Numbered from the stretch's first letter, positions 17,624 through 60,808 are shown. The stretch: DNA of 64,000 nt from Paludibacteraceae bacterium (GCA_045654945.1 JAZOOG010000017.1:46066-110065); one strand, 5' to 3'. Program-made: numbers and translations. Notes: generated by a model not told the origin, from the letters alone.

Positions 17624-19213
17624 ATCACCATTTATCACGGACAAGACGGTAAAGATGGTCAAAATGGTCAAAACGGAGCAGATGGTAAAGATGGTCAAGA
17701 CGGACAAAATGGCGCCGATGGCAAAGATGGCTCTACTCCTGTGATTGGTGTGGCACAAGACACCGACGGAGTATATTATTGGACATTGAATGGCGAATGG
17801 CTATTGGATGACAATGGCAACAAACTCCCTGTTTCAGGCAAAGACGGTCAAAACGGTGCCAATGGCTCTAATGGTCAAGACGGTGCAGACGGTAAGGACG
17901 GACAAGACGGCGAAGATGGCAAAGATGGTGCTGATGGCAAAGATGGCGTAACTCCTCAGTTGAAGATTGAGGATGGCTATTGGTACATCTCTTATGACAA
18001 TGGTGCAACTTGGACACAATTAGGCAAAGCTACAGGCGAAGATGGTAAGGATGGTCAAAATGGCTCTAATGGTACAGATGGCAAGGACGGCAAAGACGGT
18101 CAAGACGGCGACTCCATGTTCCAATCTGTAACACAAGATGATGACTATGTTTACTTCACTCTTGCTGACGGTACAGTTATTAAGATTGCAAAGGGTAGCG
18201 GTAGCAATAATCAGCTAAGTAACGAAGATATCATTGTCTTCCGAGATTTGGCAGTCAAATCTGGTTTGCTCAAATTAGGGGTAGATACAACGGGTGATGG
18301 TGAAATTTCTTATGGCGAAGCTACACAATATTCGGGTACACTTTCTTTTGGAAGCAACACAAAAATCCATTCATTTAAGGAATGCCAATATTTTACTAAT
18401 GTAAAATCTTTCGCATTTGGCTACTGTTCAAATCTATTTGAAATAGATCTCCCTGAAAATATAACTAGTATTGATCCTGGCGCATTCAAGGAATGTTCTT
18501 CCTTAATTTCACTTACGATTCCAAATAGCGTAACAAAAATTGGAGATGGTGCATTTATGCGATGCTCAACACTTGTTTCAATGACACTTCCTGAAAGTGT
18601 AATTAGTATTGAATCTAATGCTTTTTATGGTTGTGTTTCTATGAAAAATATCAACATCCCTTGTAATATCACAAGCATTGGGTCTAGTGCATTTATTGGT
18701 TGTTCCAATCTTAATGTATTATACGATGCTAAAAATTGTAGCTATTCTGAGTCTTCTCAGATTTTTCCGCAGGCACTTTCAATTACACTGGGAAATAATG
18801 TAGAATATATTCCTGCATATATGTTTTATAATGATTATAGATTAGAATCTATTGATATTCCTAAAAATGTAAAATCAATCGGAACCAGGGCATTCCAATT
18901 TTCTCAGCTTGCTTCTGTTACTTTTTCAGAAGGATTAGAAACCATAGATACATATGCTTTTTCAGGAACAAACTTGACTTCAGTACAGATTCCAAGAAGT
19001 ATTAAAACTATAGGCTCATATGCATTTACTCGTGACAATTTCACAACAACAGGTCCTAGTCAGATATATTGCGAAGCGATAACTCCGCCTACAATATCTG
19101 GTGCTCCATTCAATGTAAATGCAACTATATATGTCCCACGTGCTTATGTAGAAGATTATAAAGTTGTTTGGAGTGCTTATGCTTCGCGAATTGTTGGATA
19201 TGATTTTGAATAA
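17624..19213 (+). CDS. 5'-truncated surface protein: collagen-like (G-X-Y)n region, Bacteroidales DUF4988-type module and BspA-type leucine-rich repeats
   Basis: The frame is open from the stop at 17621-17623 and begins ITIYHGQDGKDGQNG... It has no ATG and no signal or lipoprotein sequence (the track uses GTG at 17741). Later segments: GKDGQDGEDGKDGADGKDGVTPQLKIEDGYWYISYDNGATWTQLGKATGEDG, then repeated IP.SVT.IG..AF..C..L units (LRR_5/BspA-like). Confidence 0.6.
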   Translation: MTIYHGQDGKDGQNGQNGADGKDGQDGQNGADGKDGSTPVIGVAQDTDGVYYWTLNGEWLLDDNGNKLPVSGKDGQNGANGSNGQDGADGKDGQDGEDGKDGADGKDGVTPQLKIEDGYWYISYDNGATWTQLGKATGEDGKDGQNGSNGTDGKDGKDGQDGDSMFQSVTQDDDYVYFTLADGTVIKIAKGSGSNNQLSNEDIIVFRDLAVKSGLLKLGVDTTGDGEISYGEATQYSGTLSFGSNTKIHSFKECQYFTNVKSFAFGYCSNLFEIDLPENITSIDPGAFKECSSLISLTIPNSVTKIGDGAFMRCSTLVSMTLPESVISIESNAFYGCVSMKNINIPCNITSIGSSAFIGCSNLNVLYDAKNCSYSESSQIFPQALSITLGNNVEYIPAYMFYNDYRLESIDIPKNVKSIGTRAFQFSQLASVTFSEGLETIDTYAFSGTNLTSVQIPRSIKTIGSYAFTRDNFTTTGPSQIYCEAITPPTISGAPFNVNATIYVPRAYVEDYKVVWSAYASRIVGYDFE

Positions 19214-43782: not shown

Positions 43783-44040
43783 TTTTTTATATTTTTGTAG
43801 CGAAGCGTATTTTGTATGAAAAGATAATTGATTTTAATTGTCTCTCAAGTTGTCTAAGTTGTCTGATAAATAATCATTTTTGTTTTGGGTTGCCAGCGAC
43901 GTGTCGCTCTTCCAACCCAAACAAAAAATCCCCCTTGAATTGACAATAATTAACACCTTAATTGACGTCTATTGTCTTAAAAACATAACCTGTTATTTAT
44001 ATATATTTTTGTAGCGAAGCGTATTTTTGTATTAAAAAAA
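43783..44040 (+). repeat. Intergenic cassette of about 260 bp, copy A (promoter-like module, hairpin, promoter-like module)
   Basis: Near-identical to 46110-46376. It starts and ends with ATATTTTTGTAG-CGAAGC-GTATTTTTGTAT. It contains AGTTGTCT x3 and the extended hairpin TTTTTGTTTTGGGTTG...CAACCCAAACAAAAAA (43877-43927). Confidence 0.85.
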
Positions 44041-46029: not shown

Positions 46030-46111
46030 CCCCTCCCTTCAAGGGAGGTTGGGAGAGAATCCTTGAAATTTCCGAAGGACATTGTACAATAGTGGTAGTG
46101 AGTAGCAGCAT
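46030..46111 (+). repeat. Dispersed repeat CCTCCCTTCAAGGGAGG...CCGAAGGACATTGTA.AATAGTGGTAGT.AGTAGCAGCAT, copy 1 (3'-truncated)
   Basis: The same sequence occurs at 47461-47562 and partly at 60675-60740. It starts with the hairpin CCTCCCTTCAAGGGAGG just after the gmd stop. Confidence 0.8.
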
Positions 46112-46376
46112 TTTTTAATATTTTTGTAGCGAAGCGTATTTTTGTATGAAAGAATAATTGATTTTAATTGTCTCTCAAGTTGTCTAAGTTGTCTGATAAA
46201 GCATCATTTTTGTTTTGGGTTGCTAGCGACGTGTCGCTCTTCCAACCCAAACAAAAAATCCCCCTTGATTGACAATAATTGACACCTAAAATTGACGTCT
46301 ATTGTCTTAAAAAATATAACCTGTTATTTTTAAATATTTTTGTAGGCACAAAGTGCCGTATTTATGTATTAAAAAA
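46110..46376 (+). repeat. Intergenic cassette of about 260 bp, copy B
   Basis: Aligns with 43783-44040. In the distal promoter-like module the CGAAGC spacer is replaced by the hairpin GGCACAAAGTGCC. Confidence 0.85.
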
Positions 46377-47318
46377 ATGGAAAAAAACGCCAAAATCTAC
46401 ATCGCAGGTCACCGTGGTATGGTGGGTTCTGCTATCATGCGCGAGTTGCAGCGTCAGGGATACCATAATATTATCACGCGCACGCACGCGGAACTTGACC
46501 TTTGTCGTCAGTCGGAGGTAGAGTCTTTTTTTGCTACCGAGCAGCCCGAGTATGTGTTCTTGGCGGCGGCTAAGGTGGGTGGTATCATCGCCAATCAGTC
46601 GGCATTGGCGGACTTCATGTACGACAATATGATCATGGAGATGAATGTCATCCATTCGGCTTGGCAGAACGGTTGCAAGAAGTTGCTTTTCTTGGGCTCC
46701 AGTTGCATCTATCCTCGTTTGGCGCCTCAGCCTATGAAGGAGAATTGCCTCTTGACCAGCGAGTTAGAGAAGACCAACGAGGCGTATGCTTTGGCTAAGA
46801 TCTCGGGTCTTAAGTACTGCGAGTATCTCAATCGCCAGTATGGTACGGACTATATATCTGTCATGCCTACCAATCTCTATGGTCCTAACGACAACTACCA
46901 TCCCGAGCACAGCCATGTCTTGCCTGCTCTCATCCGTCGTTTCCACGAGGCTAAGGAGAGTGGGGTAGAGTCTGTCACCTGTTGGGGCGATGGCAGTCCA
47001 TTGCGTGAGTTCTTGTATGTAGACGATTTGGCTAACCTTTGTGTTTTCCTCATGAATCACTATTCGGGCAACGAGACGGTCAATGCGGGTACGGGCAAGG
47101 AACTCAGTATCAAGGCATTGACGGAGCTGGTGGCTAAGGTAGTGGGGTACGAGGGTCGTATTGAGTGGGACACTACTCGTCCCAATGGCACGCCTCGTAA
47201 GCTCTTGGATGTCAGCAAGGCTAAGGCTTTAGGTTGGGAATATCGTACTGAGTTAGAGGATGGTATCCGTCTGGCGTATGATGATTTCCTACACAACCCC
47301 ATGCGTGCCGAACGCTAA
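46377..47318 (+). CDS. fcl: GDP-L-fucose synthase
   Basis: [21 protein letters not shown], extended-SDR epimerase/reductase. The start is set at ATG 46377 ([11 protein letters not shown]). Confidence 0.93.
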
Positions 47319-47460: not shown

Positions 47461-47562
47461 TCCTCCCTTCAAGGGAGGTTGGGAGAATCCTTGAAATTTC
47501 CGAAGGACATTGTAAAATAGTGGTAGTTAGTAGCAGTATGCTACGTCAATGGATGGTAGCTT
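47461..47562 (+). repeat. Dispersed repeat (CCGAAGGACATTG family), copy 2, longest
   Basis: tcctcccttcaagggaggttgggagaatccttgaaatttccgaaggacattgtaaaatagtggtagttagtagcagtatgctacgtcaatggatggtagct. Confidence 0.8.
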
Positions 47563-47650
47563 GGTCGATGAGGAAGTTTACTTACGCCATCGCCCAAGAT
47601 AGCGTCCATAGGAGATATGAGCATCATATCTCAACTACCACTTACATCCT

Positions 47651-47705
47651 GATATTTTTAAATATTTTTGTAGGCACAAAGTGCCGTATTTTTGTATTAA
47701 AAACC
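47651..47705 (+). repeat. Solo copy of the promoter-like module of the 260-bp cassette
   Basis: gatatttttaaatatttttgtaggcacaaagtgccgtatttttgtattaaaaa is identical in type to 46325-46372. Confidence 0.8.
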
Positions 47706-47754: not shown

Positions 47755-47788
47755 TATTTGCATATTCGCATTATTTGTTGTATCTTTG
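47755..47788 (+). promoter_or_regulatory. Promoter driving the small ORF / leader transcript
   Basis: tttatTTGcatattcgcattatttgttgTATCTTTGcagc. Confidence 0.55.
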
Positions 47789-47802
47789 CAGCGTCAATTC
47801 AA

Positions 47803-47886
47803 ATGAAAACGGTTAAGACACTCCACTTTGATGCGATCAACACTATGTATATGGGCGCCAAACGCATGTTTTTCTACTCTTTCTGA
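47803..47886 (+). CDS. Candidate 27-aa peptide MKTVKTLHFDAINTMYMGAKRMFFYSF (alternatively part of a small RNA)
   Basis: The ATG lies about 10 nt after the predicted TSS and the stop is TGA. AAGACACTCCAC inside the ORF is complementary to GTTGGAGTG...GTGTCTT just after the stop. A strong terminator follows. Confidence 0.3.
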   Translation: MKTVKTLHFDAINTMYMGAKRMFFYSF

Positions 47887-47909
47887 GTTGGAGTGTTTGT
47901 GTGTGTCTT

Positions 47910-47942
47910 AGGACGATAGACGGTGGTCTGTCGTCTTTTTTG
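47910..47942 (+). terminator. Rho-independent terminator
   Basis: AGGACGATAGAC ggtg GTCTGTCGTCTT is a 12-bp stem followed by TTTTTG. Confidence 0.8.
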
Positions 47943-48326
47943 TGTTGACAACCAGACGCTTGATTGTGTTCTTTTGTTGTTTCGGCTACATAGCGTATCT
48001 ATGTTGTCGGGTATGCTGTTTTTTGTTAAGTAGCTATCAATGATCTTGTTTCGACCTTGGGTCATAGAAACGGACATATATTTGCACATAGAAAAACACA
48101 CTTCTTTGAAGTGTTCTAAGATATATTAATATAGGGGAAAAGGGGTTGAAATAGCAGGTTCGTGGTGTTTGTGATGTAACGATACCACATCGTTACCACC
48201 TCGTACGTGCTCGTACATGGAAAACAGATTTTATGGTATCAAACAAACGTCCCTTTGTTTGCTACATGAGATGCACCATTTGTAGCGAAAACTACCTATC
48301 TGTTTCGCGACTGTTAGGCGACCATG

Positions 48327-48358
48327 ATAGGACATCTATAGGACATCTATAGGACTTA
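48327..48358. repeat. Tandem 12-mer ATAGGACATCT(A), about 2.5 units
   Basis: ataggacatctataggacatctataggactta. Confidence 0.8.
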
Positions 48359-48384
48359 TATAAGACAAATAAAATAACAATATA

Positions 48385-48393
48385 CCCCCCCCC
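48385..48393. repeat. Homopolymeric C9 tract
   Basis: tataCCCCCCCCCagaag, about 260 bp upstream of the first surface-protein gene. Confidence 0.9.
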
Positions 48394-48585
48394 AGAAGAA
48401 AGGGGAATTACCAACAACCTAAATCGAACTTTGCGAGTTCGATTTAAGAGGAGGGATGACGGCGAGCCAAACTCGTGTAAATGAGTTTCTTCTCGCAAGT
48501 ACATTCCGACGAAGGCACAGGTCATTGGGTTGACCTCTGCTCACAAAATAATGTTACAGGTTCAGAGCGAAGCGATGAGGTTAGT

Positions 48586-48624
48586 GCCTCTAACCTCTCG
48601 CCTTTAGCCTCTAACCTCTAACCT
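48586..48624. repeat. R1 heptamer array upstream of the surface-protein operon
   Basis: gcctctaacctctcgcctttagcctctaacctctaacct. Confidence 0.85.
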
Positions 48625-48655
48625 AAAAAATAGTAAACAAAGAACATAAGATATT

Positions 48656-50368
48656 ATGAAACAATCTACTACTTTCGCCAGCGTGGCAAATAAATTTTCA
48701 AAGGTATTGCAAGGGTATACTATGGGTATACGATTCACTGCCATTTTAACCATACTCCTCACAATGGGAATTGGACAAGTATGGGGTGCACCTTCCGCCA
48801 GGTATTATCTAATCGGAGATCCCACAGGGAGCTGGAATAAATCAGAAACGTATAAAATCAAAACATGGTACAATAAAGATGGTCAATACATTTTATATGT
48901 TTACGCCAGCAAAGACAGCTTCTTCCGTCTAAAAAAAGATGATGATGCAAACTATGGACCATCATCTGATCAATCCACTTCACAAGGTTATGGTGCTTAC
49001 AACGAGAATGCATGGAAGTATAATGGGAATTCTGGTATAGTTCGTTTTGGTGTAGATGAAACTGCTGGTAATAATGGCGAACATTATCCTTATGTCTTTT
49101 GGGAAAAAGTTGATATTAAAATTAAACACGGTTGGAATGGCGGTGACTGGACGTCTCAACAAATGGAAGCGCAAAGCGATGGAACATATACTTATATTGG
49201 TCAATATAGTGGAACCCAAGGTGCCAACTTTGGTATAGAGGGTAGTCAAGCTACATTCAAATATATTTCTGACACTAAATTAATTGGATCTCCTCAAAAG
49301 GGGCATAGATGTTTGTTTACATACAGTCCTGTAGGATATATTGGTTATGGCTCAGAAACGCAAAATACAGGTTCTGCAACTATCACTCGTCTCTATACGA
49401 TTACATACAACGGAAATGGTCACACTGGCGGTACAGTACCAGAAGCGGTTGATAAAAAGCACGGAACAAACATCACACTATCCAATAGCACTCCAACTCG
49501 TACTGGATATACTTTTACCGGATGGAATACTAAACAAAATGGCACAGGTACTTCTTATGCCAAAGGTGCAACCTATTCAACCGATGCAGATGTAACATTA
49601 TATGCACAATGGAAGGGTAATAATTATACAGTTACTCTTAATGATAATGGTGGTTCGGGTGGTTCAGGAACAGTTTCTGCCACTTATGGTTCCGCAATGC
49701 CTGCTATTAAAATACCAACTCGCAGCGGTTATACTTTTAATGGATATTGGACGGGAACAACAGTTAATAGTACGCAATACTACAAAGCAGATGGTAGCAG
49801 TGCAAAGAACTGGGATAAAGCAGGCAATACTACCACTCTCTATGCACTTTGGATACCAAACACCTTTACCGTACATTTTGACGGCAATGGCAATACAAGT
49901 GGTTCAATGACTGACCAACCATTTACTTATGATGTATCACAAAATTTAAAAACTAATGCATTTGAAAAAACTGGTCATACATTTGCAGGTTGGGCGAAAA
50001 CATTAAATGGTGCTGTTGTATATAGCGATAAACAGAATGTTAAAAATTTAACTACTGATAACAACGCTACTGTTACCCTCTACGCTCAATGGACACTCAA
50101 CACCTATCCTGTCAAATGGTATGTCAATGGTGAAGAATTAACAGGTGCGGCGACAACCGTCGCTCATGGCAGCAAGGTGACTACTGTCCCAGAGGTTGAT
50201 TTGAATACCTATTGCGAAGGTAGTGATGTGCTTGCTGGTTGGACAACAGCTCCGATGGAGAACGCTAGTGTCACGGCTCCCGCTCAACTATATAAGACAA
50301 TAGATGACTTCCCGACAGCGGAAAGACCTCAAACGTTCTACGCCGTCTTTGCGAATTATGTTGAATAA
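48656..50368 (+). CDS. Secreted surface protein 1: N-terminal beta-rich domain plus about 4 Listeria-Bacteroides repeats
   Basis: Long N-region signal (..ANKFSKV..TILLTMGIGQVWGA). Repeats of the type YTITYNGNGHTGG...PTRTGYTFTGWNT...GTSYAKGATY...TLYAQW. It ends FYAVFANYVE with no T9SS tail. Confidence 0.8.
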   Translation: MKQSTTFASVANKFSKVLQGYTMGIRFTAILTILLTMGIGQVWGAPSARYYLIGDPTGSWNKSETYKIKTWYNKDGQYILYVYASKDSFFRLKKDDDANYGPSSDQSTSQGYGAYNENAWKYNGNSGIVRFGVDETAGNNGEHYPYVFWEKVDIKIKHGWNGGDWTSQQMEAQSDGTYTYIGQYSGTQGANFGIEGSQATFKYISDTKLIGSPQKGHRCLFTYSPVGYIGYGSETQNTGSATITRLYTITYNGNGHTGGTVPEAVDKKHGTNITLSNSTPTRTGYTFTGWNTKQNGTGTSYAKGATYSTDADVTLYAQWKGNNYTVTLNDNGGSGGSGTVSATYGSAMPAIKIPTRSGYTFNGYWTGTTVNSTQYYKADGSSAKNWDKAGNTTTLYALWIPNTFTVHFDGNGNTSGSMTDQPFTYDVSQNLKTNAFEKTGHTFAGWAKTLNGAVVYSDKQNVKNLTTDNNATVTLYAQWTLNTYPVKWYVNGEELTGAATTVAHGSKVTTVPEVDLNTYCEGSDVLAGWTTAPMENASVTAPAQLYKTIDDFPTAERPQTFYAVFANYVE

Positions 50369-50416
50369 AAGCGAAAAGAAAATAAATAGTATTAACGATT
50401 AAACAGAGAAATGATT

Positions 50417-53400
50417 ATGAAAACTTTACATACTATATATACGAATTTCGCAAAGCGTAACTTAGCAAGATTCCTAACCGTGTTTACTATCCTCTTCACC
50501 ATCGGAATAGGACAGATATTGGGTGCGACTGCGAGTTATACGTGGGATTTGACTTCCTCTTCGGCAAATTGGACGAGTTCTAATTGTGAAACCTATTTTA
50601 GTCAGCCTTATGGCATGAAGAAAAAAGATGCATATATAATCAATAAAAACATAGATGACTTTAAACAATACGCGGCTACTGCAACATCCATTCAAATAGG
50701 TGTAAAAAGTTTGTGTAATGGTGCTACAACTAGTAAATTAACCATATATCTTGTGGATAAAGATGGGAATATGGTTGGTTCTGGTATGGAAATTACTCCT
50801 GACAATAAGAGTAGCGCTTCTAATACAACATATAAGTATGTTACATTTACATCAAATCTCTCGACTGCGACAGGATATAAAATACAATGTACCACATTTG
50901 GAAAGAATGTCTTAGTTAATGGAAGTAGTTATGAGATAACATATGATGACTCTTCATCAGGTAGCGGTTCTGGCAATATCGGTGGAGGAAATGATTCTGA
51001 TGGTTGCACATGGGAACTTGTAACTGATGCTTCTACTCTTGCAGCAGGTAATCGTATAGTAATTGCTGCTGCTGGATATGATTATGCAATGGGTGATAAT
51101 TCAAGTAACGGGGAATATCGAATACGTACTGCAATTACAAAGAATGAAAATAAGATTGCTATAACCAATGATGTTCAGATTATAATTCTGGAGGAAGGTA
51201 CAAAGACTAATACATTTGCATTCAATGTGGATGATAGTTATCTCTATGCCGCATCATCAAGTAGCAACCACTTAAAGACCAAAACCACACTTGATGACAA
51301 TGGTAGTTGGAGCATAACGATTGCTAATAATAGTGTTGCAACGATTAAAGCACAAGGTACTAATACACGTAACTGGATTAGATATAACGCTAATAGCAGT
51401 CAAGAACGTTTCTCCTGCTATGGTAGCGGTCAAAATGATGTGGTTATATACAAAGAAATCTGTGCTAAAGAAGTAATTGTAACATTGAATCCTGATGGTG
51501 GTACAGGTACATTCACAGATTGGACTACTAGTGGTGACAATTACACAATGACTGTAGATGCTGGTACAGAAATCACATTGCCTACTTTACAGAAAATAGG
51601 TTATAATTTTGCAGGTTGGCATGACGGGACAGCAACGGTTACTTCGCCATATACACCAACTACAGATATTACTCTTACAGCTCAATGGACTGCGATCGAA
51701 TACACTATCACATATAACGATACAAAAGGAGCTACCAACACTAACCCTGCAACTTATACCATTGAGGATGAAATAACCTTCTCAGACCTTACCAATTTAC
51801 CCAAAGGCTACAACTTCACAGGTTGGAATCCTGCCTCTATTGCTAAAGGTACTACAGGTAATCAAACTGTTACTGCCCAATGGACTGAAAAACCCCTCAC
51901 GAGATACCGTACGGATTGTGATGCTTGTATTCCATTAGATGGTTTTGCCTCTATTGATGGTACATACCATTTCTTCCCTGGTGAAACAATTACTATGACT
52001 GTTACACCACCTGCGGACGATGTACCTTACACCTACAAATGGCAGAAATTCGTGGAGGACGAATGGGAAGATATTGACGGAAAAACCACTACTACCTATA
52101 CTAAAGCTGAAGCCACAATAGAAGATGTCGGTCACTATAGATGTGTAGTGTCGGCTGAAGGCTATTGCGATGCAATTGCAGAGTATAACGTTAAATGCCT
52201 ACAATTGAATGTGTACTATAATGACCATTCCTTTGCATTTACTACACCATTAGAGAAAGTTGATGCAACAACCGCTTCTATCAGTGTTGATTTGCAAAAC
52301 GCAAATTACACATACTATTTTGAGATTACAGACGGTTGTGAAAATTTCTATGGCTTCAACGGAGATATACATAGTGATTGGTATGAGAATGTAGAGTTGA
52401 ATGCGATGAATAGTTCTACTCATTGTGGTTTGCAGACTACTAAGTTTGGTACATACATATTCACCGTAGATCATTCATATCTAACAGATAATAGCAAATT
52501 TTATCCTATTGTAACAGTTACGTATCCTGCCTCTTTGCAGGAAGCAAACAAAGTGATTTATTTGGATAATAATGTCCTCAAATGGACCCATTCAAATAAT
52601 GCAGATGGCACAAACAAAATTTACTATCGTATCGGTCGTGGTAATCATAACAATAAAACTGCGATGACATTGGTGCCTGGTACTGCTAATCTCTATAAGG
52701 TGACAACAAGCAAGTATGATAACTTTGACGTATGGCATATCGCGAATAATGGTTGCTGGTCAGAGGATAATTCAATCTTTAAAACAAAGACAGGTGATGA
52801 ATGGGCAGCTACACAAGCTACTGCATTTGAAACGCTTCCTGTCACTTTAGCAGCAGTAACAGTTACCCCTACAGATTTACGCTCCGTGGGTGGTGATAAC
52901 GACAACAATAACTGCGAGTTCTACAACTACAACATCACCGAAGGCATGAAGACTTGGAATGCCAAGATTGTAGAACCTACTAATGGTACAATCACGGTTT
53001 CATACACCCATCACGATGGTACAGCGGTTAATAACTTCACTTCGGGCAACCGTGATTTGGCACATACCTGTCTTTTGACTATCACTGCTACGGCTAATGA
53101 AGGATATTCACTCGCATCACTGACGGTGAATGATGTGCCTTTCACTTCGGGCAATATACATACGCTGACTGGAAATGCTGTTATCAAAGCCACTTTCACC
53201 ATTAACTCTTACACTGTTACATGGAAACTTGACGGAGGTAATTGGGGGGGTGATGCAAGCAATAAAGTGGTAACACATAAGTTTGGCGATGAGATACAAG
53301 CACCCGAAAAACCAACGTACGATTGCCACGAATTTGTAGAGTGGAATCCTACATATACTGCAGGTATGAAGATGCCCGCTAATAATTTGGAGTTCACTGC

Positions 53401-53869
53401 ACAATGGAACAAACTCTCATATACCATCACTTTCAAAGACTATGATGGCACAGTGTTGAAAACCTCTACTGTGGAGTGTGGCGAAACCCCAACCCCTCCT
53501 ACATCTCCAACTCGTGGACAGGATGCAATGTATGAGTATGAATTTGCAGGTTGGAGTCCTGCTATTACGGAAGTTACTGGCAATCAGATTTATACTGCTA
53601 CATACAATCAAACCAAACGCCAATATACAGTCAATTGGTATGTGAATGGAGTGCAACTCCACTCCGAACTAGTCGCTGCGGGAGATGAGGTTACCGCTCC
53701 AGTGGTCAATCCAATTCCTTGTGGTGCTGTATTAGCTGGTTGGACAGATGCGGAAAATGGTGTGTATGAACATGAGGTTTCTGAATTGCATGAGGGTGCG
53801 CAACCATCCATTGTGATATTAGAAAACAAAACCTTCTACGCCGTCTTTGCGGATTACGTGAACGAATAA
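50417..53869 (+). CDS. Secreted surface protein 2 (1150 aa), modular paralog of proteins 1 and 3
   Basis: The start MKTLHTIYTNFAKR is shared with protein 3 at the nucleotide level. It has an N-terminal module, a ~150-aa domain paralogous to protein 3 (..LEEGTKTNTFAFNV...YLYAASSSSNHLKT...NGSWSITI...ATIKAQGTNTRN..), L-B repeats and an Ig-like segment (YKWQKF...DVGHYRCVV). It ends FYAVFADYVNE. Confidence 0.8.
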   Translation: MKTLHTIYTNFAKRNLARFLTVFTILFTIGIGQILGATASYTWDLTSSSANWTSSNCETYFSQPYGMKKKDAYIINKNIDDFKQYAATATSIQIGVKSLCNGATTSKLTIYLVDKDGNMVGSGMEITPDNKSSASNTTYKYVTFTSNLSTATGYKIQCTTFGKNVLVNGSSYEITYDDSSSGSGSGNIGGGNDSDGCTWELVTDASTLAAGNRIVIAAAGYDYAMGDNSSNGEYRIRTAITKNENKIAITNDVQIIILEEGTKTNTFAFNVDDSYLYAASSSSNHLKTKTTLDDNGSWSITIANNSVATIKAQGTNTRNWIRYNANSSQERFSCYGSGQNDVVIYKEICAKEVIVTLNPDGGTGTFTDWTTSGDNYTMTVDAGTEITLPTLQKIGYNFAGWHDGTATVTSPYTPTTDITLTAQWTAIEYTITYNDTKGATNTNPATYTIEDEITFSDLTNLPKGYNFTGWNPASIAKGTTGNQTVTAQWTEKPLTRYRTDCDACIPLDGFASIDGTYHFFPGETITMTVTPPADDVPYTYKWQKFVEDEWEDIDGKTTTTYTKAEATIEDVGHYRCVVSAEGYCDAIAEYNVKCLQLNVYYNDHSFAFTTPLEKVDATTASISVDLQNANYTYYFEITDGCENFYGFNGDIHSDWYENVELNAMNSSTHCGLQTTKFGTYIFTVDHSYLTDNSKFYPIVTVTYPASLQEANKVIYLDNNVLKWTHSNNADGTNKIYYRIGRGNHNNKTAMTLVPGTANLYKVTTSKYDNFDVWHIANNGCWSEDNSIFKTKTGDEWAATQATAFETLPVTLAAVTVTPTDLRSVGGDNDNNNCEFYNYNITEGMKTWNAKIVEPTNGTITVSYTHHDGTAVNNFTSGNRDLAHTCLLTITATANEGYSLASLTVNDVPFTSGNIHTLTGNAVIKATFTINSYTVTWKLDGGNWGGDASNKVVTHKFGDEIQAPEKPTYDCHEFVEWNPTYTAGMKMPANNLEFTAQWNKLSYTITFKDYDGTVLKTSTVECGETPTPPTSPTRGQDAMYEYEFAGWSPAITEVTGNQIYTATYNQTKRQYTVNWYVNGVQLHSELVAAGDEVTAPVVNPIPCGAVLAGWTDAENGVYEHEVSELHEGAQPSIVILENKTFYAVFADYVNE

Positions 53870-53915
53870 TGCGAAATAAATATTAGTATCAACAATCAAA
53901 CAAAACAGAAAGATT

Positions 53916-56900
53916 ATGAAAACTTTACATACTATATATACGAATTTCGCTAAGCGTTTGGCAGTGACAATGATGGTCTTGGTGACTATCGGTGTCGGAA
54001 ATGTATGGGCAGATACATATACATGGACTTTGAATACTGGAGATTTATCCGCAGGTTCTTCATCTGTCACAAAGGGTTTACCACAAACAACATGGCAAAC
54101 TACATATACTTGGACTACTTCTCAAACTTATTTTGGTTTTGATAATCAATTAGGTAGAGGTTTACAAATTGGTTCTGCAGACAAATCTTGCCAAAAAGCA
54201 GTCTTTACAACTAATGGTATTTCTGGTACTATTAATAGCATTAAGATAAATAGTTCTGGTAATGCCAATGCTACGATTAATGTGGCTATCGGCGGAGAAT
54301 CTGTCATATCTAAAAATCTAACTACTTCTGCAACAGATTATACATCAGGTGCAATTAATAAAAGCGGTACAATTGAAATAACGCTTTCCAATAATGGAGA
54401 AACAAAAGCACTTTATATGAAGTCAATTGTTATCGAGTACACACCAGATGGTAGTTCTACTCCTACTCCAGAACCAGACCCAAACTATACATATGTGGCA
54501 ACTTTGGTGACAGATGCTTCTAAATTATCAGTTGATGATCAAATCATCATTGTGGCAAAAAATACTGATGTTGCTCTCAGCACAACGCAAAACAACAACA
54601 ACCGTGGACAAGCAACCGTTAAGAAAGAGAATAGTTTGGTATATTTCAATGATGATGCACAATTGATTACACTTGAGGAGGGTACAAAAGAAAATACTCT
54701 TGCCTTTAATGTAGGCAACGGTTATCTTTATGCGGCATCATCAAATAACAACCACTTAAAAACACAACAAACTAAAAATGACAATGGAAGTTGGAGCATA
54801 TCTATCACTAACGAGGGCGTAGCCACTATTAAAGCGCAGGGAACTAATACTCGCAATTTGGTGCAATATAATTCTAATAATAGTCTCTTCTCATGCTATA
54901 GTAGTAGTCAACAATCTGTTGCTATATATAAACATGAATCTTGCACCAATTCAGTTTCCATCGAACAAGGAACGATGGAAAATGTCAATACTATGACATT
55001 CAGTACAGAAAGTATAAAGACCTGTACCGATGAGGATGAGGATCTACAAGTAACAATAAGCATTACTCCAGAATCATGTTATACTGTTCCAAATGATACT
55101 CGCTTAACTATCAGCGGAACAAATGCTACCTATGTAAACGGACCAATTGACGATGGCAATGGCAACTATACATTTGTATATCAATTTGCTAAAGACGCTA
55201 CAGGTACTTCCTACTTTTCTGCGTCATTAGATACCCCAAAGACATATACAATTAATTACAAAAAAGGAGCAAACGGACAAGGCGAAGATGCTTCTGACAC
55301 CAAAATATGCGATGAAGATTTGACTCTCGAAGGAGTTATATTTACTCGTTGGGGCTATGACCAAGTTGGCTGGTCAACAACTGATGGAGGTGATAAAGAA
55401 TATGAATTGGGTGGTACGTATTCAGCTAATGCCCAGACGACCTTATATCCTGTTTGGGAGAAAAAAGACCTCACTAACTTCCGCACGCTTTGTACTTACG
55501 AAATTATCTTAGATAAGAATGGCGGTACTACCGATGGTTCTGCACTTGTGACTGCTTCCAAAACTGTTTTAACTGCAATCAATCTTCCAGTATATGCAGG
55601 TCATCAAATAGCAGGTTACTACGCGGAACCAGGGTGCACTACCTTGATTGCAGACGTTGCGGGCAATTTGCAACCTAATACTCCATACACCAACGCTAAT
55701 GGAGGATGGACCGCAGGTGAAGTAACCCTTTATCCAAAATGGGAAGCGTTGGAATATACTGTCACATGGAAAGTTGGAGGCGAACCTTTTGCTACATCCA
55801 CGGTAAGTGCAACTCAAGCTCTTGCACTCCCTGTCCCAGCACCTGCTGACGATGCGCTCGGCTGTTGCGCAGAGAAATTTATTGGTTGGAGCACATCTAC
55901 CACTCCTACCAAAGCGCAAGTATTTAGCGACCTTGCCAACGCTCCTGCTATCACAGGTGATCAAACTTTCCACGCTGTCTTTGCGACACCAGTGCCTGGT
56001 GCAGGCAATTCACTCGTTACATTCAACGAAATGGGATATGCTAACGAGGAAGCGGTTGCTTCTGTCACATTAGGCGATGGCATGGGCAATGGCGATGCTA
56101 CTATCACCTTTGCCAAAGGTACCGCAGCTACATACGCTCCTACCTATTATAATATAGGTGAGGCAGTACGCACTTACGCTGGCAACACCATTACCGTGGC
56201 AGCTACATACGCTAACACCGTTCTCACACAAATTGACTTTGCATTTGCTAAGGGCGAGAACGCCAATGCCATTACTGCCTCTACAGGCACTATCACCGAT
56301 GGTGTATGGACGGGCAATGCACAATCTGTCACCTTCACTATAGACGGTGCTACAGGTCATAGAAGAATTGCTTCTGTCGCTATTACAACCGCTGTTACAG
56401 GTGACCAATACACCAATTATGTTACCAAGTGCGATTTGTCTGGCAGTGCTTCTATCGGTGTAGGTACAATTACATATGCTAATAGTGCAACAACTATTGA
56501 TACCAAGTGCGGTCAGCGTTCTCCTGCGAGCAAGGCAGCTACGCTTACCTTCGCTTCTGCACAAGACCTCACATGTCCTTTGACTATCGAAGCAAGTGCT
56601 GGATTCCTTGTTTCTACCAATAAAAACGACAACTCTAAGTATGCGTCCAACATCACCGTTAAACCCGTTAAGACAGGTGCTAACAAGGGCAAACTGCCAA
56701 CTGTATATGTTCGCTATGAAGCCAACAACGGTGCTTCTGGTCAAATAAATGGTACAATTACCGTAACAGGCAGCGAAATTACAGAAACTACCATCAATGT
56801 ACTTGCCAATGTGACATGTACCCAATACTCCCTCACCGTAGTTAATCACTTGGGCGAAACTATTAGCACAGCCGAGTACTACGAAGGCGGTGAGGTGACA

Positions 56901-59900
56901 GAAGTCGCTGCCCCTGCTACTGATGACTGCTCAAAAGATTATACTTTTGATGGTTGGTCAGAGACTTCAGTAGAATACGGCTCCCTTATATATAATAAGG
57001 TGTCCTTCCCATTCACCATGCCTGCAAACGATGTTACTCTTTATCCTGTATATCGTGTAAATGACACTGAGGATTATCACCGCGTAACCTACGACCTTGG
57101 CGCTGATAATTGGGCAGGAGATTATTTGATTGCGTTTAGCAACACTATTTTTGCCGATGGGCGGATAGGTGGAATAGGAGCAAGTGCTATTGGTGCTTCT
57201 GGTAATTTCGTAAATCCTGAAACGGATTTAAAAGGCGATATGGTACAAGGTCATTGGGGGGACACATATAATGTGAAATTAGTTGAAGTGGATGGTGGCT
57301 ATGTAATGCAAACAAAAGATGCTCTATATAATTATGTGACTGATAATCAAAATATACAAAGTACAATAACAACAACTGCAAATATAAGTACTGCAGGCGG
57401 TTATCCTTTGACAGTAACGTTCAAGAGCATATCCGATATAGAAATTAAAAATCCTAACAATGGTGCTGTCTTCCATTGTGGTTCTTTCTTCCGCTTCTAT
57501 TTAGTTACTCAAAATCATCACCCCGTTTACCTCTACAAGAAATCTCCTCTCTACACCACACCGCTGATTTGTGGTTCTATTGAGGCAGAAGATGCAGTAG
57601 TCACCTCTACCGCGGGTCAGACTATCAAGGTAAATGTGCCTATCACAATCACTTCTTTGCTGAGCGGAACAACCAACATTACCGCAGATAGCGACAATGA
57701 CCACTTTACGGTAACGCCTTTGGAGAATGTAAGCGAAGGCGAACACGCTATTGCCGTGCATTACACACCTGATGCTACAACCGACGGCACTGAAACCGCC
57801 AATATTACCCTTACCGCTTCGCACGGCAACCGCGCTACCACCACTTTCCAAGTAACAGGTCGCCACTTGCCAGAGAACTTTGTGATTGCAGCGAAATGGG
57901 GAGAGAATTGGTATGTATTACCTGCTGACATGACCAGCGAAAGCATCACTGAAGGTCTGCTCATCGAGGTGGACGATTCTTCTAACCCAACCAAGGCACT
58001 GGCAGCACCAAATACAACCAAATATGGATTGAAGTCTGTATATACTTCCAATAGTTCTGCCGATAGATTTGCTGCTAACGGCAATCGCCTTGTCTTCGTG
58101 GAGGACGTTATTGAAGCAACTCCAATAACCAACAAAACGCTCTACAACGGTGGCGATGGAAGCAGCAGCAAAACGAACATCCAAGTCTATGCGCAATATA
58201 CTGGTTATTACACTACTAACCCAGATCGCTACGAGTGGATTCCTACCACTACCGACCTCAAGGATTACACACTAACCAGTGCAACTGTTTTGACGGGTGA
58301 TGCCGCTGGACGCACCGTCAGTCTGGACAATCACGGCATCTTCGGCACACTACTGCAAGACAAGTCCTACAACGGTATGGTTCGTCTGCTGCCGGTAGAT
58401 AATTTCTACGAGCCAATCGAATTGCAAGTGGTAGAGTGGAAACAACATAGCGTATCTGTCATGTACACGGGTGCAGGCACCAAATATACTACCAAGGTGG
58501 GCAATAATGCAGAAAGCAGCGTACAAGCACTTCCCGCAATCGACCATGCTGTATATAGTCTTTCTACCAGCGACTTGACCACTGCCACCAACCAACCACT
58601 CATCATCACAATCAAAAATGATGCAGATGCTACCATCGGTACTGTCAAACTCACCATCCCTGCTGTCGTGGCAACCAACGCTACCACGACAAGCCTGGTA
58701 ACCAGCAATGACATTGCTAAAGCAACCAGCATCGTTGTCTTAAACGGTGCTACATTGACTGCTGATGCTACCAAATACACCTACGATGACATCACCGTTT
58801 ATCCTGGTGGTAAGCTGGTCATTGGTCAAAGTGGTCAATTGGGTATGTATACCCTGACCCTCCGCGCTGGCTCTACTTGGGGAGCTGCGGACTACGAACA
58901 CAAGTATCCACAATTCGTGCTCAATAATCAAACAGAAGGCGCTTACAGCAACACCTCTGGACAAATCAACCTTGACTACGTGACAACCAAAGAACAGTAC
59001 TATACCTTCGTGGCTCCATTCGATGTAAATACCAAAGACATCAAATATCCAGTTGATATCTACGGCAGCAATGTGGCCAAAGCCAACTCGGGTAGCTTCG
59101 AGTTCCAATACTACGACGGAGCAGCCCGCGCAGCAGGCTCACCAGGTTGGAAGGTAGTAGAGGAGGGTGCAGAAGGCGCAACGCTCAGAGCAGGTCAAGG
59201 CTACACCTTCCTCGGTATGCCAAAGAAGATCAATGACACCCGTCAGAAATATGGTATCCACCGTATTCCTATGAAGGTTGCTGCTATTACAGCACAATCG
59301 CATGAGACTGCCGACCAAACCGTGCCGCTGAGCGTACACCTTTCCGCTAAGAACAACAACTCAGGTTGGAATCTTGTGGGTAACCCATACATGGCTACTG
59401 TCACAGGCCTCACCAATAGCGATATCCAAGTAGGCAAATTGGTTCACACCAACGATGCTAATGGCAATTGGACAGGTGGCTGGCACTGGGACGATCCTAC
59501 TACTGGTCAACGCTTCCTCGTTATACCGAGCAACGATGGTCACTCCTATTCCGCTGTGCAAGCCAGCCATGCTACACTGCCTGCGTTCAAGAACTTCTTC
59601 GTGCAGATTAGCAACGCCAATGCCGACGCCATGAGTGTTCCTGTGGCAAATCGCGAAGATAAGCACTTGGCACCAGCCCGCCATGCAGATACGCCGCTGG
59701 CGCACGACATCGAGCTGGCTATCGTGCTGGAGCAAGATGACGCGCATGTCGACCAACTCGATTTCTTGCTCAACGACCTATATAGCGCGGCATTTGACTT
59801 CAATGGCGATTTCACCAAGATGATGAATGCTACCCTTCTGAATCTCTATGGCGTGCATACCGACGACAATCTCAGTTTCGTGGCTGTGGATCACCATACG

Positions 59901-60281
59901 GCTCGGCAATCCATTCCTATTGGTTATCAGGTGCCTGCTGCGGGCGAGTATACGCTCCGCATGTCTGACCAACCATATGTGATGTGGGACGAGATAGAGG
60001 CGCTCTATGTCACCGACCATGAAATGTCGCCTGCACTAACAACCGACCTCATGAGTACGCCTTACACCTTCTTTGTCCATCAGGCAGAGACCAATAACGA
60101 GCGTTTCACCCTTTCTGTTCAAACAAAGGCTAAGACCGAGAATGGCGCTACCGATTTGGATAATGTGCTTTCGGAGGGCGAACAAATCCACAAGTTTATC
60201 TACCAAGACAAGATCTTTATCCTGCACCATGGTGTGGTCTATGATGCAACGGGTAAACGAGTCATAACTATCAATAAATGA
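53916..60281 (+). CDS. Giant surface protein 3 (2121 aa) with a probable T9SS C-terminal sorting domain
   Basis: The signal peptide and N-terminal modules are paralogous to protein 2. L-B repeats are present. FHAVFATP near residue 690 is an internal copy of the FYAVFA end motif and is followed by a second N-module-like unit. The C-terminus IHKFIYQDKIFILHHGVVYDATGKRVITINK resembles Prevotella/Bacteroides Por-secretion tails. Confidence 0.75.
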   Translation: MKTLHTIYTNFAKRLAVTMMVLVTIGVGNVWADTYTWTLNTGDLSAGSSSVTKGLPQTTWQTTYTWTTSQTYFGFDNQLGRGLQIGSADKSCQKAVFTTNGISGTINSIKINSSGNANATINVAIGGESVISKNLTTSATDYTSGAINKSGTIEITLSNNGETKALYMKSIVIEYTPDGSSTPTPEPDPNYTYVATLVTDASKLSVDDQIIIVAKNTDVALSTTQNNNNRGQATVKKENSLVYFNDDAQLITLEEGTKENTLAFNVGNGYLYAASSNNNHLKTQQTKNDNGSWSISITNEGVATIKAQGTNTRNLVQYNSNNSLFSCYSSSQQSVAIYKHESCTNSVSIEQGTMENVNTMTFSTESIKTCTDEDEDLQVTISITPESCYTVPNDTRLTISGTNATYVNGPIDDGNGNYTFVYQFAKDATGTSYFSASLDTPKTYTINYKKGANGQGEDASDTKICDEDLTLEGVIFTRWGYDQVGWSTTDGGDKEYELGGTYSANAQTTLYPVWEKKDLTNFRTLCTYEIILDKNGGTTDGSALVTASKTVLTAINLPVYAGHQIAGYYAEPGCTTLIADVAGNLQPNTPYTNANGGWTAGEVTLYPKWEALEYTVTWKVGGEPFATSTVSATQALALPVPAPADDALGCCAEKFIGWSTSTTPTKAQVFSDLANAPAITGDQTFHAVFATPVPGAGNSLVTFNEMGYANEEAVASVTLGDGMGNGDATITFAKGTAATYAPTYYNIGEAVRTYAGNTITVAATYANTVLTQIDFAFAKGENANAITASTGTITDGVWTGNAQSVTFTIDGATGHRRIASVAITTAVTGDQYTNYVTKCDLSGSASIGVGTITYANSATTIDTKCGQRSPASKAATLTFASAQDLTCPLTIEASAGFLVSTNKNDNSKYASNITVKPVKTGANKGKLPTVYVRYEANNGASGQINGTITVTGSEITETTINVLANVTCTQYSLTVVNHLGETISTAEYYEGGEVTEVAAPATDDCSKDYTFDGWSETSVEYGSLIYNKVSFPFTMPANDVTLYPVYRVNDTEDYHRVTYDLGADNWAGDYLIAFSNTIFADGRIGGIGASAIGASGNFVNPETDLKGDMVQGHWGDTYNVKLVEVDGGYVMQTKDALYNYVTDNQNIQSTITTTANISTAGGYPLTVTFKSISDIEIKNPNNGAVFHCGSFFRFYLVTQNHHPVYLYKKSPLYTTPLICGSIEAEDAVVTSTAGQTIKVNVPITITSLLSGTTNITADSDNDHFTVTPLENVSEGEHAIAVHYTPDATTDGTETANITLTASHGNRATTTFQVTGRHLPENFVIAAKWGENWYVLPADMTSESITEGLLIEVDDSSNPTKALAAPNTTKYGLKSVYTSNSSADRFAANGNRLVFVEDVIEATPITNKTLYNGGDGSSSKTNIQVYAQYTGYYTTNPDRYEWIPTTTDLKDYTLTSATVLTGDAAGRTVSLDNHGIFGTLLQDKSYNGMVRLLPVDNFYEPIELQVVEWKQHSVSVMYTGAGTKYTTKVGNNAESSVQALPAIDHAVYSLSTSDLTTATNQPLIITIKNDADATIGTVKLTIPAVVATNATTTSLVTSNDIAKATSIVVLNGATLTADATKYTYDDITVYPGGKLVIGQSGQLGMYTLTLRAGSTWGAADYEHKYPQFVLNNQTEGAYSNTSGQINLDYVTTKEQYYTFVAPFDVNTKDIKYPVDIYGSNVAKANSGSFEFQYYDGAARAAGSPGWKVVEEGAEGATLRAGQGYTFLGMPKKINDTRQKYGIHRIPMKVAAITAQSHETADQTVPLSVHLSAKNNNSGWNLVGNPYMATVTGLTNSDIQVGKLVHTNDANGNWTGGWHWDDPTTGQRFLVIPSNDGHSYSAVQASHATLPAFKNFFVQISNANADAMSVPVANREDKHLAPARHADTPLAHDIELAIVLEQDDAHVDQLDFLLNDLYSAAFDFNGDFTKMMNATLLNLYGVHTDDNLSFVAVDHHTARQSIPIGYQVPAAGEYTLRMSDQPYVMWDEIEALYVTDHEMSPALTTDLMSTPYTFFVHQAETNNERFTLSVQTKAKTENGATDLDNVLSEGEQIHKFIYQDKIFILHHGVVYDATGKRVITINK

Positions 60282-60309
60282 TGATATAAGGTTGAAGGTT
60301 TAATGTTTA

Positions 60310-60711
60310 ATGTTTAAAGACATGGAAACAATGAAAATTATGAAAGCAATGAGATTCTTATTGATAGTTCTTGGATTATCCACCGTATTGACTTTGTCGG
60401 CTCAGTCTTTTGCTGAGCAACCTGTAGTGCAGATGCATTCCACTTCTGCTATGATGGGGTCGGGTAGTGAACTACCTCAGGCTGCTATTACGGGTACGTA
60501 CACTACTTATTCATCGGGTTCTGGTTCATCTTTTTCTCCCCGTGGTCCGCAACGTTCTTTAGAGGACGGCGAGGACAAGCCAGACGGCTGGGACGAGCCT
60601 TTCGACGAGCCAGTGGGCAACGTGCCTTGGTTGTTGATGCTTCTCCTCGCGCTGGGCTACGCCCTGCGCGTAAACCTTCCGAAGGACATTCAAAATAGTG
60701 GTAGTGAGTAG
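60310..60711 (+). CDS. Small secreted Ser/Gly-rich protein with a C-terminal hydrophobic anchor
   Basis: Signal MKAMRFLLIVLGLSTVLTLSAQ. The tail is DEPVGNVPWLLMLLLALGYALRV. Several in-frame ATGs (60310-60349) leave the start uncertain. The last ~12 codons lie inside dispersed repeat copy 3. Confidence 0.55.
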   Translation: MFKDMETMKIMKAMRFLLIVLGLSTVLTLSAQSFAEQPVVQMHSTSAMMGSGSELPQAAITGTYTTYSSGSGSSFSPRGPQRSLEDGEDKPDGWDEPFDEPVGNVPWLLMLLLALGYALRVNLPKDIQNSGSE

Positions 60712-60740
60712 CAGCATGCTACGTCAATGGATGGTAGCTG
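60675..60740 (+). repeat. Dispersed repeat (CCGAAGGACATT family), copy 3 (5'-truncated)
   Basis: ccttccgaaggacattcaaaatagtggtagtgagtagcagcatgctacgtcaatggatggtagct. Confidence 0.8.
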
Positions 60741-60763: not shown

Positions 60764-60808
60764 AAAAAATCGTGCCAACCTTGCGGGAGGCACGATTTGC
60801 TCTTCTTT
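60764..60808. terminator. Bidirectional terminator between the surface-protein operon and the ZIP gene
   Basis: AAAAAATCGTGCC ... GGCACGATTT followed by gctcttcttttt. On the minus strand the same stem is followed by TTTTTTG. Confidence 0.7.

Follow-up and report, generated by a model that had tools for sequence, protein, structure and literature searches.

Organization of the locus

We analyzed a 64,000-nucleotide (nt) window of a Paludibacteraceae bacterium genome (GCA_045654945.1, JAZOOG010000017.1:46066-110065), in which four co-oriented genes, here termed P1 to P4, occupy positions 48656-60711 as counted from the first letter of the window. An earlier note had described them as an operon encoding three modular surface proteins of 570, 1150 and 2121 amino acids (aa) followed by a small protein of 133 aa, and these open reading frames (ORFs) were confirmed, the second being 1152 or 1150 aa long depending on the start codon. 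The genes and the features of main interest are the following:

48656-50368, plus strand: P1, ORF of 570 aa, 'head' protein
50411-53869, plus strand: P2, ORF of 1152 aa, 'head' protein (1150 aa if the second ATG, at 50417, is used)
53916-60281, plus strand: P3, ORF of 2121 aa, 'base' protein
60310-60711, plus strand: P4, ORF of 133 aa, small partner
50996-51475, plus strand: predicted beta-trefoil of P2, aa 196-355 (alignment, AlphaFold2, Foldseek)
54483-54965, plus strand: predicted beta-trefoil of P3, aa 190-350 (profile match at aa 190-362)
58341-60188, plus strand: conserved C-terminal module of P3, aa 1476-2091 (homologues, alignment, AlphaFold2)
60189-60278, plus strand: short C-terminal tail HKFIYQDKIFILHHGVVYDATGKRVITINK, last 30 aa of P3 (partial alignment to a sorting domain)
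50331-50458, plus strand: P1/P2 junction module (terminal-repeat end with its stop codon, about 45 nt, then start codon and signal-peptide n-region)
53829-53957, plus strand: P2/P3 junction module, second copy (direct-repeat search)

The gaps between the four genes measure 42, 46 and 28 nt, and a hairpin scan revealed no terminator-like hairpins in any of the three. In agreement with the AT-richness noticed earlier, GC content is 0.385-0.41 across 48-56 kb (P1, P2 and the 5' half of P3) compared to about 0.50 in the flanks, although the 3' third of P3 is host-like in this respect (0.45-0.50). Listeria-Bacteroides repeats, already named in the earlier note, were the only elements recognized by Pfam and NCBIfam in all three large proteins (PF09479, cut-off 27 bits: 95.2 bits, E 2.6e-27, in P1, 66.2 bits in P2 and 30.2 bits in P3), TIGR02543 being above its cut-off of 20.95 in P1 only (53.4 bits; 19.9 bits in P2). 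P2 gave in addition a sub-threshold immunoglobulin (Ig) match and a borderline match to a divergent InlB repeat, and Pfam searches with ten sub-segments of the cassette proteins returned sub-threshold noise only. No exact-sequence record was found by look-up for P1, P2, P3 or P4.

A conserved base protein with a short sorting-domain-like tail

P3 begins with a Sec signal peptide (aa 1-32), recognizable in the translation by its basic n-region, hydrophobic core and VWA|D cleavage site, which is followed by a unique tip (33-189), the trefoil (190-350) and Listeria-Bacteroides-type repeats (442-693), the last of which ends in FHAVFA. The remainder consists of a recurring module (696-838), a diverged trefoil-like region (about 1119-1210) and a conserved base (about 1203-2121). 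The C-terminal region of about 600 aa, marked by the GWNLVGNPY motif encoded at 59364-59390, had been reported to lack an obvious family, and indeed residues from about 1476 to 2121 form a conserved family to which no Pfam domain corresponds. Similarity to orthologues reaches back to about residue 1203, with 26-44% identity over about 900-1,000 aa to the base regions of comparison loci L005-L013. AlphaFold2 predicted an all-beta, multi-domain C-terminal structure (predicted local distance difference test score, pLDDT, of 77), and the 542-aa C-terminal model had no significant fold match in the PDB.

The closest relatives of the base found in the genome scan, at up to 45% identity, belong to Paludibacteraceae metagenome-assembled genomes, largely recovered from the guts of ruminants and other animals. 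Relatives of weaker similarity occur across the Bacteroidota, where they lie directly ahead of type IX secretion system (T9SS) sorting domains. In all seven long-tail homologues tested, the last ~60 residues passed the type-A sorting-domain model TIGR04183 (24.5-41.2 bits, cut-off 23), as did homologue P0192. The type-A domains that end base-region homologues are complete and model-positive, which assigns the whole family to T9SS cargo, and sequence comparison places P3 in it as a member with 'half a sorting domain'. The short tail, of the form KFIYQDKxYILxxGVxYDAxGKxV, aligns to the first half of the canonical domain (alignment A2): in 17 of 19 short tails, VYDAxGKxV fell at positions 31-45 of an 80-position profile built from 33 canonical tails, albeit weakly (5-10 bits). 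The earlier proposal that P3 alone bears a T9SS-like tail thus stands as far as position and partial alignment go, but not at the level of a T9SS model match. P3 likewise gave no match to the type-B sorting-domain model, and the literature returned nothing relevant on Listeria-Bacteroides repeats with T9SS or on Paludibacteraceae with T9SS.

Similar Bacteroidales-type proteins, three of them nearly identical, were also encountered on contigs binned as Flexilinea, Akkermansia, Lachnospiraceae and Oscillibacter (L038, L043, L048 and L063). These proteins end in a T9SS-like sorting tail (..KGVYIQNHKKIVKQ), and the contigs are probably mis-binned.

An unnamed beta-trefoil family

The domain of about 150 aa that the earlier note had pointed out in P2 and P3 without being able to name it was recovered by BLASTP (P2 203-510 versus P3 197-533, roughly 330 residues near the N-terminus; 37% identical across 359 columns, E 1e-39), and the corresponding DNA is 71% identical (direct repeat D1). 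Pfam gave no match for either copy, nor did any Pfam model cover the domain in 40 family members (E <= 1e-4), the best ricin-like score being that of RicinB_lectin_2 in one homologue (E 0.073). An alignment of 16 sequences displayed the conserved blocks YLYAASSSSNHLKT, NGSWxI, ATIKAQGTNTRN and LFSCY...IYK. The AlphaFold2 model of the P2 domain (pLDDT 91.3; predicted template-modelling score, pTM, 0.89) had 65 Foldseek matches in the PDB at E <= 1e-3, which were beta-trefoils throughout, with template-modelling (TM) scores of 0.55-0.65 and 6-15% identity. Ricin-type lectins and interleukin-1beta (IL-1beta) scored best, and the matches included the Polyporus squamosus lectin, the BT0265 trefoil, BEL, HA33, MOA and cytolethal distending toxin subunits. 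On the strength of the model we are confident in predicting that the domain is a beta-trefoil, that is, of a lectin-type fold.

The family is large: an exhaustive profile search retrieved, at E <= 1e-3, 6,561 cluster representatives, of which 2,398 reached E <= 1e-30, and many of the proteins have 2-6 copies of the domain. Members are found in multi-domain proteins bearing signal peptides and so look extracellular, and, judging from signal peptides and termini, they may stem from Gram-positive lineages besides the Bacteroidales. Partner domains comprise Flg_new (7/40) and Endonuclease_1 (6/40) as well as Big_2, fn3 and Peptidase_C10. A third copy, placed by the earlier note at about residue 1130 of P3, was seen by profile comparison (about 1119-1210; hhalign E 3e-5, probability 73%, 90 columns), a modest match that single-sequence comparison failed to detect; a fourth candidate, at 1306-1479, was not supported (E 0.008, probability 5%).

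Endonuclease I is repeatedly fused to the trefoil, in six of the 40 top family members (P0031, P0032, P0033, P0061 and P0072 being examples). A gene for an Endonuclease_1 protein also lies just upstream of the base-module gene in L002-L004 (8560-9813), its product carrying a T9SS-type tail as judged by eye and not by a model test. Such fusions hint at a link to extracellular DNA or the biofilm matrix.

Head proteins with unrelated N-terminal tips

P1 consists of a signal peptide (aa 1-44), an N-module (45-246), Listeria-Bacteroides repeats (247-486) and a terminal module (487-570) ending in FYAVFANYVE. P2 has a signal peptide, an N-module (39-195), the trefoil (196-355) and Listeria-Bacteroides repeats, followed by an Ig-like stretch (521-581), a poorly conserved middle (586-860), further repeats and a terminal module (1071-1152) ending in FYAVFADYVNE. 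Neither ORF is interrupted: both are long, begin with a start codon, encode a full signal peptide and have a conserved terminus. The signal peptides have long conserved n-regions of two types. One, MKQST...GYT(K/M)GIRF, is found in P1 (as MKQST...GYTMGIRF), L001 and L006, the first gene of L025 beginning with MKQSTTF without the GYTxGIRF part; the other, M(IM)KTLHTIYTNFAKR, is found in P2, P3, L008 and L025.

The view of three paralogues built from one module set was upheld only in part: it is valid for P2 and P3 over the segment aligned above, but not for the N-terminal half of P1 or for the tips. By BLASTP, P1 matches P2 and P3 only in the repeats and the last ~85 residues, besides a weak N-terminal match of 72 residues that includes the signal peptide (E 4e-05). 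An N-module common to the three proteins, as claimed earlier, was rejected by profile comparison, the segments P1 45-246, P2 39-195 and P3 33-189 displaying no mutual homology (hhalign E >= 0.2), and none of them had relatives among the ~90 loci fetched. By these comparisons, the three N-modules are unique tips, unrelated to each other. The P1 N-module matched neither Pfam nor the sequence of any PDB chain, and the P2 middle region had no sequence match among PDB chains either.

The terminal module and recurrence of the split architecture

The terminal module of the head proteins spans ~80 aa with invariant P, C, GW and YA.xA (alignment A4) and stops 2-6 mostly acidic residues past FYAVFA. This motif, earlier described as terminal in all three proteins, does end P1 and P2; in P3 it is internal, at residue 685. 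No sorting domain was detected in P1 or P2.

The earlier note had suggested that the three-gene arrangement be sought in other Prevotellaceae. The split did recur, in at least seven other loci, but an assignment to Prevotellaceae was not supported, the closest kin being Paludibacteraceae. In L008, L010 (two genes), L011, L012, L013, L017 and L025, the base gene is preceded by head-type genes at gaps of -1 to 65 nt, and the products of these genes have their own signal peptides and end in ..TFYAVFADY(A/D/E)(D/N) or ..YYAVWA(E/V)EE. Upstream genes without a sorting domain, as observed for P1 and P2, are thus a recurrent feature of at least seven other loci. Among 649 ORFs of 250 aa or more, only 13 had a YAV[FW]A ending, and 11 of these 13 (from eight loci) directly precede a base gene; the twelfth lies just downstream of a P4-like gene (L029), and for the thirteenth no position was established. 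L023 has a partial upstream ORF that ends in ..YYAVFH and overlaps the start of the base gene. A database search with the terminal-module alignment yielded 10 further fragments, all 10 of which end at the same point.

Internal copies of the repeat were found in L005 (3,815 aa), L006 (3,103 aa), L001 and, as mentioned, P3; in the single-chain giants they are followed by a Gly/Ser/Thr/Glu linker. These giants share a P1-type signal peptide and a P3-type base, and strict collinearity with P1+P2+P3 was not seen, as only signal peptide, repeats and base match. Separately, the P3 homologue of L001 (2802-11650, GCA_054278235.1) is called as two genes of 2,394 and 549 aa, 14 nt apart, which may reflect either a stop or frameshift in a protein of ~2,950 aa or a sequencing error.

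Because sorting-domain-less genes with the same terminal module recur and 10/10 database matches end alike, the comparative data strengthen the central question of the earlier note, namely how P1 and P2 gain access to the surface. Its idea that they 'piggy-back' on P3 is a candidate answer, and the terminal module a candidate docking or export determinant for both.

P4, a small partner of the base

The small C-terminally anchored protein, included in the cassette by the earlier note, proved to be a regular companion of the base. Using a profile from three P4-like proteins, we located P4-like genes directly downstream (7-59 nt) of the base gene in about 20 distinct loci, mostly Paludibacteraceae, accompanying bases with short and with canonical tails alike. 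This conserved linkage indicates that P4 is a partner of the base protein. Family members share a signal peptide ending in ..SA|Q, the motif MHSTSxMxGSGSxLPxAA, PRGPxR, an acidic/Pro-rich stretch and P-[ILV]-G-D, followed by a hydrophobic helix and a basic cluster (alignment A5). In P4 of the window, a signal peptide ending in LSA|Q is followed by the MHSTSAMMGSGSELPQAA motif, PRGPQR, the acidic/Pro-rich stretch, PVGNVPW and a predicted transmembrane helix. Judged by sequence, a family member would consist of a cleavable signal peptide, then a disordered stretch of Ser, Gly, Pro and acidic residues, a P-x-G-D motif and, at the C-terminus, a membrane helix.

No Pfam or NCBIfam family matched the P4 family as such; weak matches were obtained to JDVT-CTERM (3 of 15 members, E 0.0036) and to MYXO-CTERM (2 of 15, E 0.037), none of them from P4 of the window. 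The window contains no candidate for a cognate sorting enzyme of a CTERM-type signal.

Junction modules and strain variation

The two junction modules contain direct repeats of 49 nt (D2, 96% identical) and 54 nt (D4, 74% identical), the 49-nt stretch being more alike than the trefoil-coding DNA (71%). Two contigs of the same species allowed the site to be compared between strains. L085, from a metagenome, shares the left junction at 98.7% identity, and L090 matches the downstream ZIP flank (98% identity, starting at window position 60805). The cassette at the same chromosomal site in L090 is different, with a divergent base gene, a P4-like gene of 140 aa with an intact basic tail, and an extra gene, not present in the window, whose 729-aa product has a pair of trefoil domains and a short tail.

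Leader region and neighbouring genes

As stated in the earlier note, the cassette is positioned downstream of GDP-fucose synthesis genes, which are accompanied by a short-chain dehydrogenase gene. A ZIP transporter gene follows P4 on the opposite strand, and a 1.3-kb non-coding stretch separates GDP-fucose synthase from P1:

44918-46021: GDP-mannose 4,6-dehydratase (gmd), upstream of the cassette
46353-47318: GDP-fucose synthase (fcl), upstream of the cassette
47758-48655, plus strand: long upstream non-coding region (sequence reading, hairpin scan, repeat comparison)

A Bacteroidetes-type promoter-like motif (TTTG..TATCTTTG, at about 47773-47788) is followed by a small ORF of 27 codons (47803-47886) encoding MKTVKTLHFDAINTMYMGAKRMFFYSF, whose start loosely resembles MKTLHTIYTNFAKR of P2 and P3. 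Terminator-like hairpins are found at 47910-47937 (strong, with a T-run) and 47990-48019. Small ORF and hairpin could be a leader peptide, an attenuator or a small gene ahead of the remaining ~0.7 kb of leader. About 260 nt upstream of the P1 start lies a C9 tract (48385-48393), which is C8 in L085; the difference could be due to phase variation or a homopolymer assembly error. No Rfam family matched within 47-61 kb.

Dispersed intergenic repeats of two families, whose copies are 82-96% identical, were also observed. One occurs just after genes (gmd, fcl and P4; 46032-46111, 47462-47561 and 60677-60739), the last copy supplying the final 11 codons of P4, and the other just upstream of genes (43989-44038, 46320-46375 and 47648-47703). 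We considered an integrated island flanked by att-like direct repeats of 48-62 nt (47500-47561 and 60678-60739) and rejected it, because a third copy follows gmd (46032-46111) and the companion element recurs upstream of genes. No empty site was retrieved: a repeat scan of metagenomes found the same left junction, in L085, and beyond that just an unrelated locus (L086).

Elsewhere in the window, the gene at 17741-19213 lies in a second low-GC patch (0.36) and encodes what is probably a further variable surface protein, combining a collagen-like repeat with DUF4988 and leucine-rich repeats of the BspA type, and a Fic/DOC and winged-helix protein is encoded at 8950-10062 among purine-biosynthesis genes (purD, purH, purM and purL-like).

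Comparison with known systems

The closest functional analogue of the cassette is the sprCDBF operon of Flavobacterium johnsoniae. According to PMC5879114 and PMC9143113, sprB, the gene for the giant adhesin, is preceded by the accessory genes sprC and sprD, and SprF, encoded downstream, binds SprB and is needed for its secretion and anchoring. Both systems would thus combine accessory genes upstream, a giant repetitive T9SS-linked adhesin and a gene for a smaller membrane protein downstream. There is, however, no sequence relationship: SprB has a type-B sorting domain, unlike the half type-A domain of P3; SprF is a PorP-like outer-membrane beta-barrel, unlike P4, a single-helix protein of 133 aa without a family; and P1 and P2 resemble adhesins, a property not established for SprC or SprD. 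Neither P3 nor P4 therefore qualifies for the class of type-B cargo with a PorP/SprF partner.

With type-A cargo (TIGR04183/PF18962), P3 shares the Sec signal peptide, an extracellular architecture that is large and modular, and the equivalent C-terminal position of its tail, but this tail is only ~30 aa long, corresponds to the first half and remains below all model thresholds, so that P3 has the signal peptide of the class and not its Por_Secre_tail-model domain of ~70-100 aa. Ricin-type lectins (3phz, Polyporus squamosus; 4i4s, Boletus edulis BEL; 3ah4, botulinum HA33) have the same fold as the modelled trefoil (Foldseek probability 1.00, TM 0.60-0.65) and a similar extracellular modular-protein setting, yet identity is 10-15%, and neither a QxW repeat signature nor a Pfam ricin match (RicinB_lectin_2) is present. 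IL-1beta, which is not a lectin, scores about like the ricin-type lectins.

P1, P2 and P3 do belong among the Listeria-Bacteroides/InlB B-repeat proteins (PF09479, PF18998), with model-positive copies in each. The terminal module follows the same ...GW...(T)xYAxW strand pattern and is unlike the standard repeat in containing Cys (C-x3-5-[FL]-x-GW), in consistently ending the protein and in its short acidic tail. The P4 family resembles PEP-CTERM, MYXO-CTERM and JDVT-CTERM signals in its short P-[ILV]-G-D motif, hydrophobic helix and basic cluster; as the family matches are weak and P4 of the window is without the basic cluster, it is not counted among these tripartite sorting signals.

A model for the cassette and its alternatives

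Taken together, these results favour, at slightly better than even confidence, a model in which the cassette is a strain-variable, co-transcribed-looking, T9SS-linked modular surface adhesin/lectin apparatus of a Paludibacteraceae-like gut Bacteroidales. Most likely it represents a familiar kind of giant adhesin, several conserved parts of which are unnamed in protein-family libraries. In such a model all four proteins would be exported by Sec; P3 would cross the outer membrane via the T9SS and display lectin-like modules; P1 and P2 would act with the base and not alone, by docking or co-export through the terminal module; and P4 would be anchored in the inner membrane, facing the periplasm, where it could aid export or anchoring of the base. 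Heads may be swapped by recombination at the duplicated junction modules, which would explain the low-GC heads, the host-like GC of the base and the differences between strains. A more specific version, which we regard as unlikely, is a hitherto undescribed multi-subunit T9SS-dependent surface structure with P1 and P2 carried on or docked to P3 via the terminal module and P4 as export or anchoring partner; if true, it would amount to hitch-hiking through the T9SS and to a new class of cargo-specific accessory protein.

Several points weigh against this model. The P3 tail lacks the C-terminal half of the type-A domain, which is generally held important for recognition, and neither the whole protein nor its C-terminal pieces matched any T9SS model of Pfam or NCBIfam at cut-offs as loose as E <= 5-10; the same applies to three other short-tail homologues. 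No T9SS components are encoded among the genes of the 64-kb window. Carbohydrate binding by the trefoil would be a prediction from the modelled fold; QxW is not among the invariant residues of the alignment, and the (QxW)3 signature is absent. The exit of P1 and P2 from the periplasm and their contact with P3 are proposals built on sequence features, and operon status is deduced from spacing and conservation. P4 may be impaired in this strain because a dispersed repeat here encodes ..NLPKDIQNSGSE in place of the basic cluster, a same-species contig having an intact P4' that ends in RVGKKIGLR... Finally, the comparison genomes are mostly metagenome-assembled.

These points leave room for other explanations. 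P1, P2 and P3 could be independent tandem paralogues that form no complex, P1 and P2 being periplasmic or released otherwise, for instance in outer-membrane vesicles, with the shared terminal module as the last repeat of a common ancestor. That every gene has its own signal peptide, that the terminal module is a Listeria-Bacteroides/InlB B-repeat variant which is internal in other proteins, and that the P1/P2-P3 interaction is so far a proposal would all fit. We nevertheless consider this doubtful, as in 13 local cases and 10 from the database the ending is kept within 2-6 residues, in proteins that are otherwise very different, and head-type genes are immediately beside the base gene (-1 to 65 nt). 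The split might also have arisen as a side effect of cassette recombination, or of gene fission, at a hypervariable adhesin locus, in which P1 and P2 would be silent or decaying donors for antigenic variation of P3 as the sole functional adhesin. The duplicated junction modules, the contrast between low-GC heads and host-like-GC base, the other cassette at the same site within the species, the single-chain giants of 3,103-3,815 aa in relatives and the L001 homologue split by a stop codon are all in line with such a process, which is nonetheless very improbable in our view: P1 and P2 are intact ORFs with complete signal peptides and conserved termini, and recurrence of the same split in distantly related loci argues for selection, not decay.

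Alternatively, the T9SS may not be used at all, the short tail being a distinct sorting or anchoring signal evolved from a type-A domain and P4 its dedicated anchor or receptor. The failure of the P3 tail in all T9SS models and its missing second half speak for this, as does conservation of the short tail as such in many proteins, including 15/147 top trefoil-family proteins by pattern match and the two-trefoil proteins of 722-729 aa. The short tail nevertheless sits exactly at the position of the canonical domain, and P4-like genes follow complete type-A bases too (L009, L016, L017, L025, L027 and L029), from which it follows that P4 does not track tail type; we therefore rate this explanation as quite improbable and retain that of a T9SS-linked adhesin apparatus.

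Giant T9SS-linked adhesins shape the attachment of gut and rumen Bacteroidales to glycans, host surfaces and other cells, and few have been dissected. The cassette described here poses the testable question of whether proteins without a sorting domain gain access to the surface by association with domain-bearing cargo, and further asks what role a conserved small membrane protein encoded beside the cargo gene may play, whether half a type-A sorting domain is sufficient for export, and which target is bound by a trefoil family of more than 6,500 clusters that is fused repeatedly to extracellular nucleases and adhesins. Overall, the differences between strains suggest that this surface structure is under diversifying pressure.

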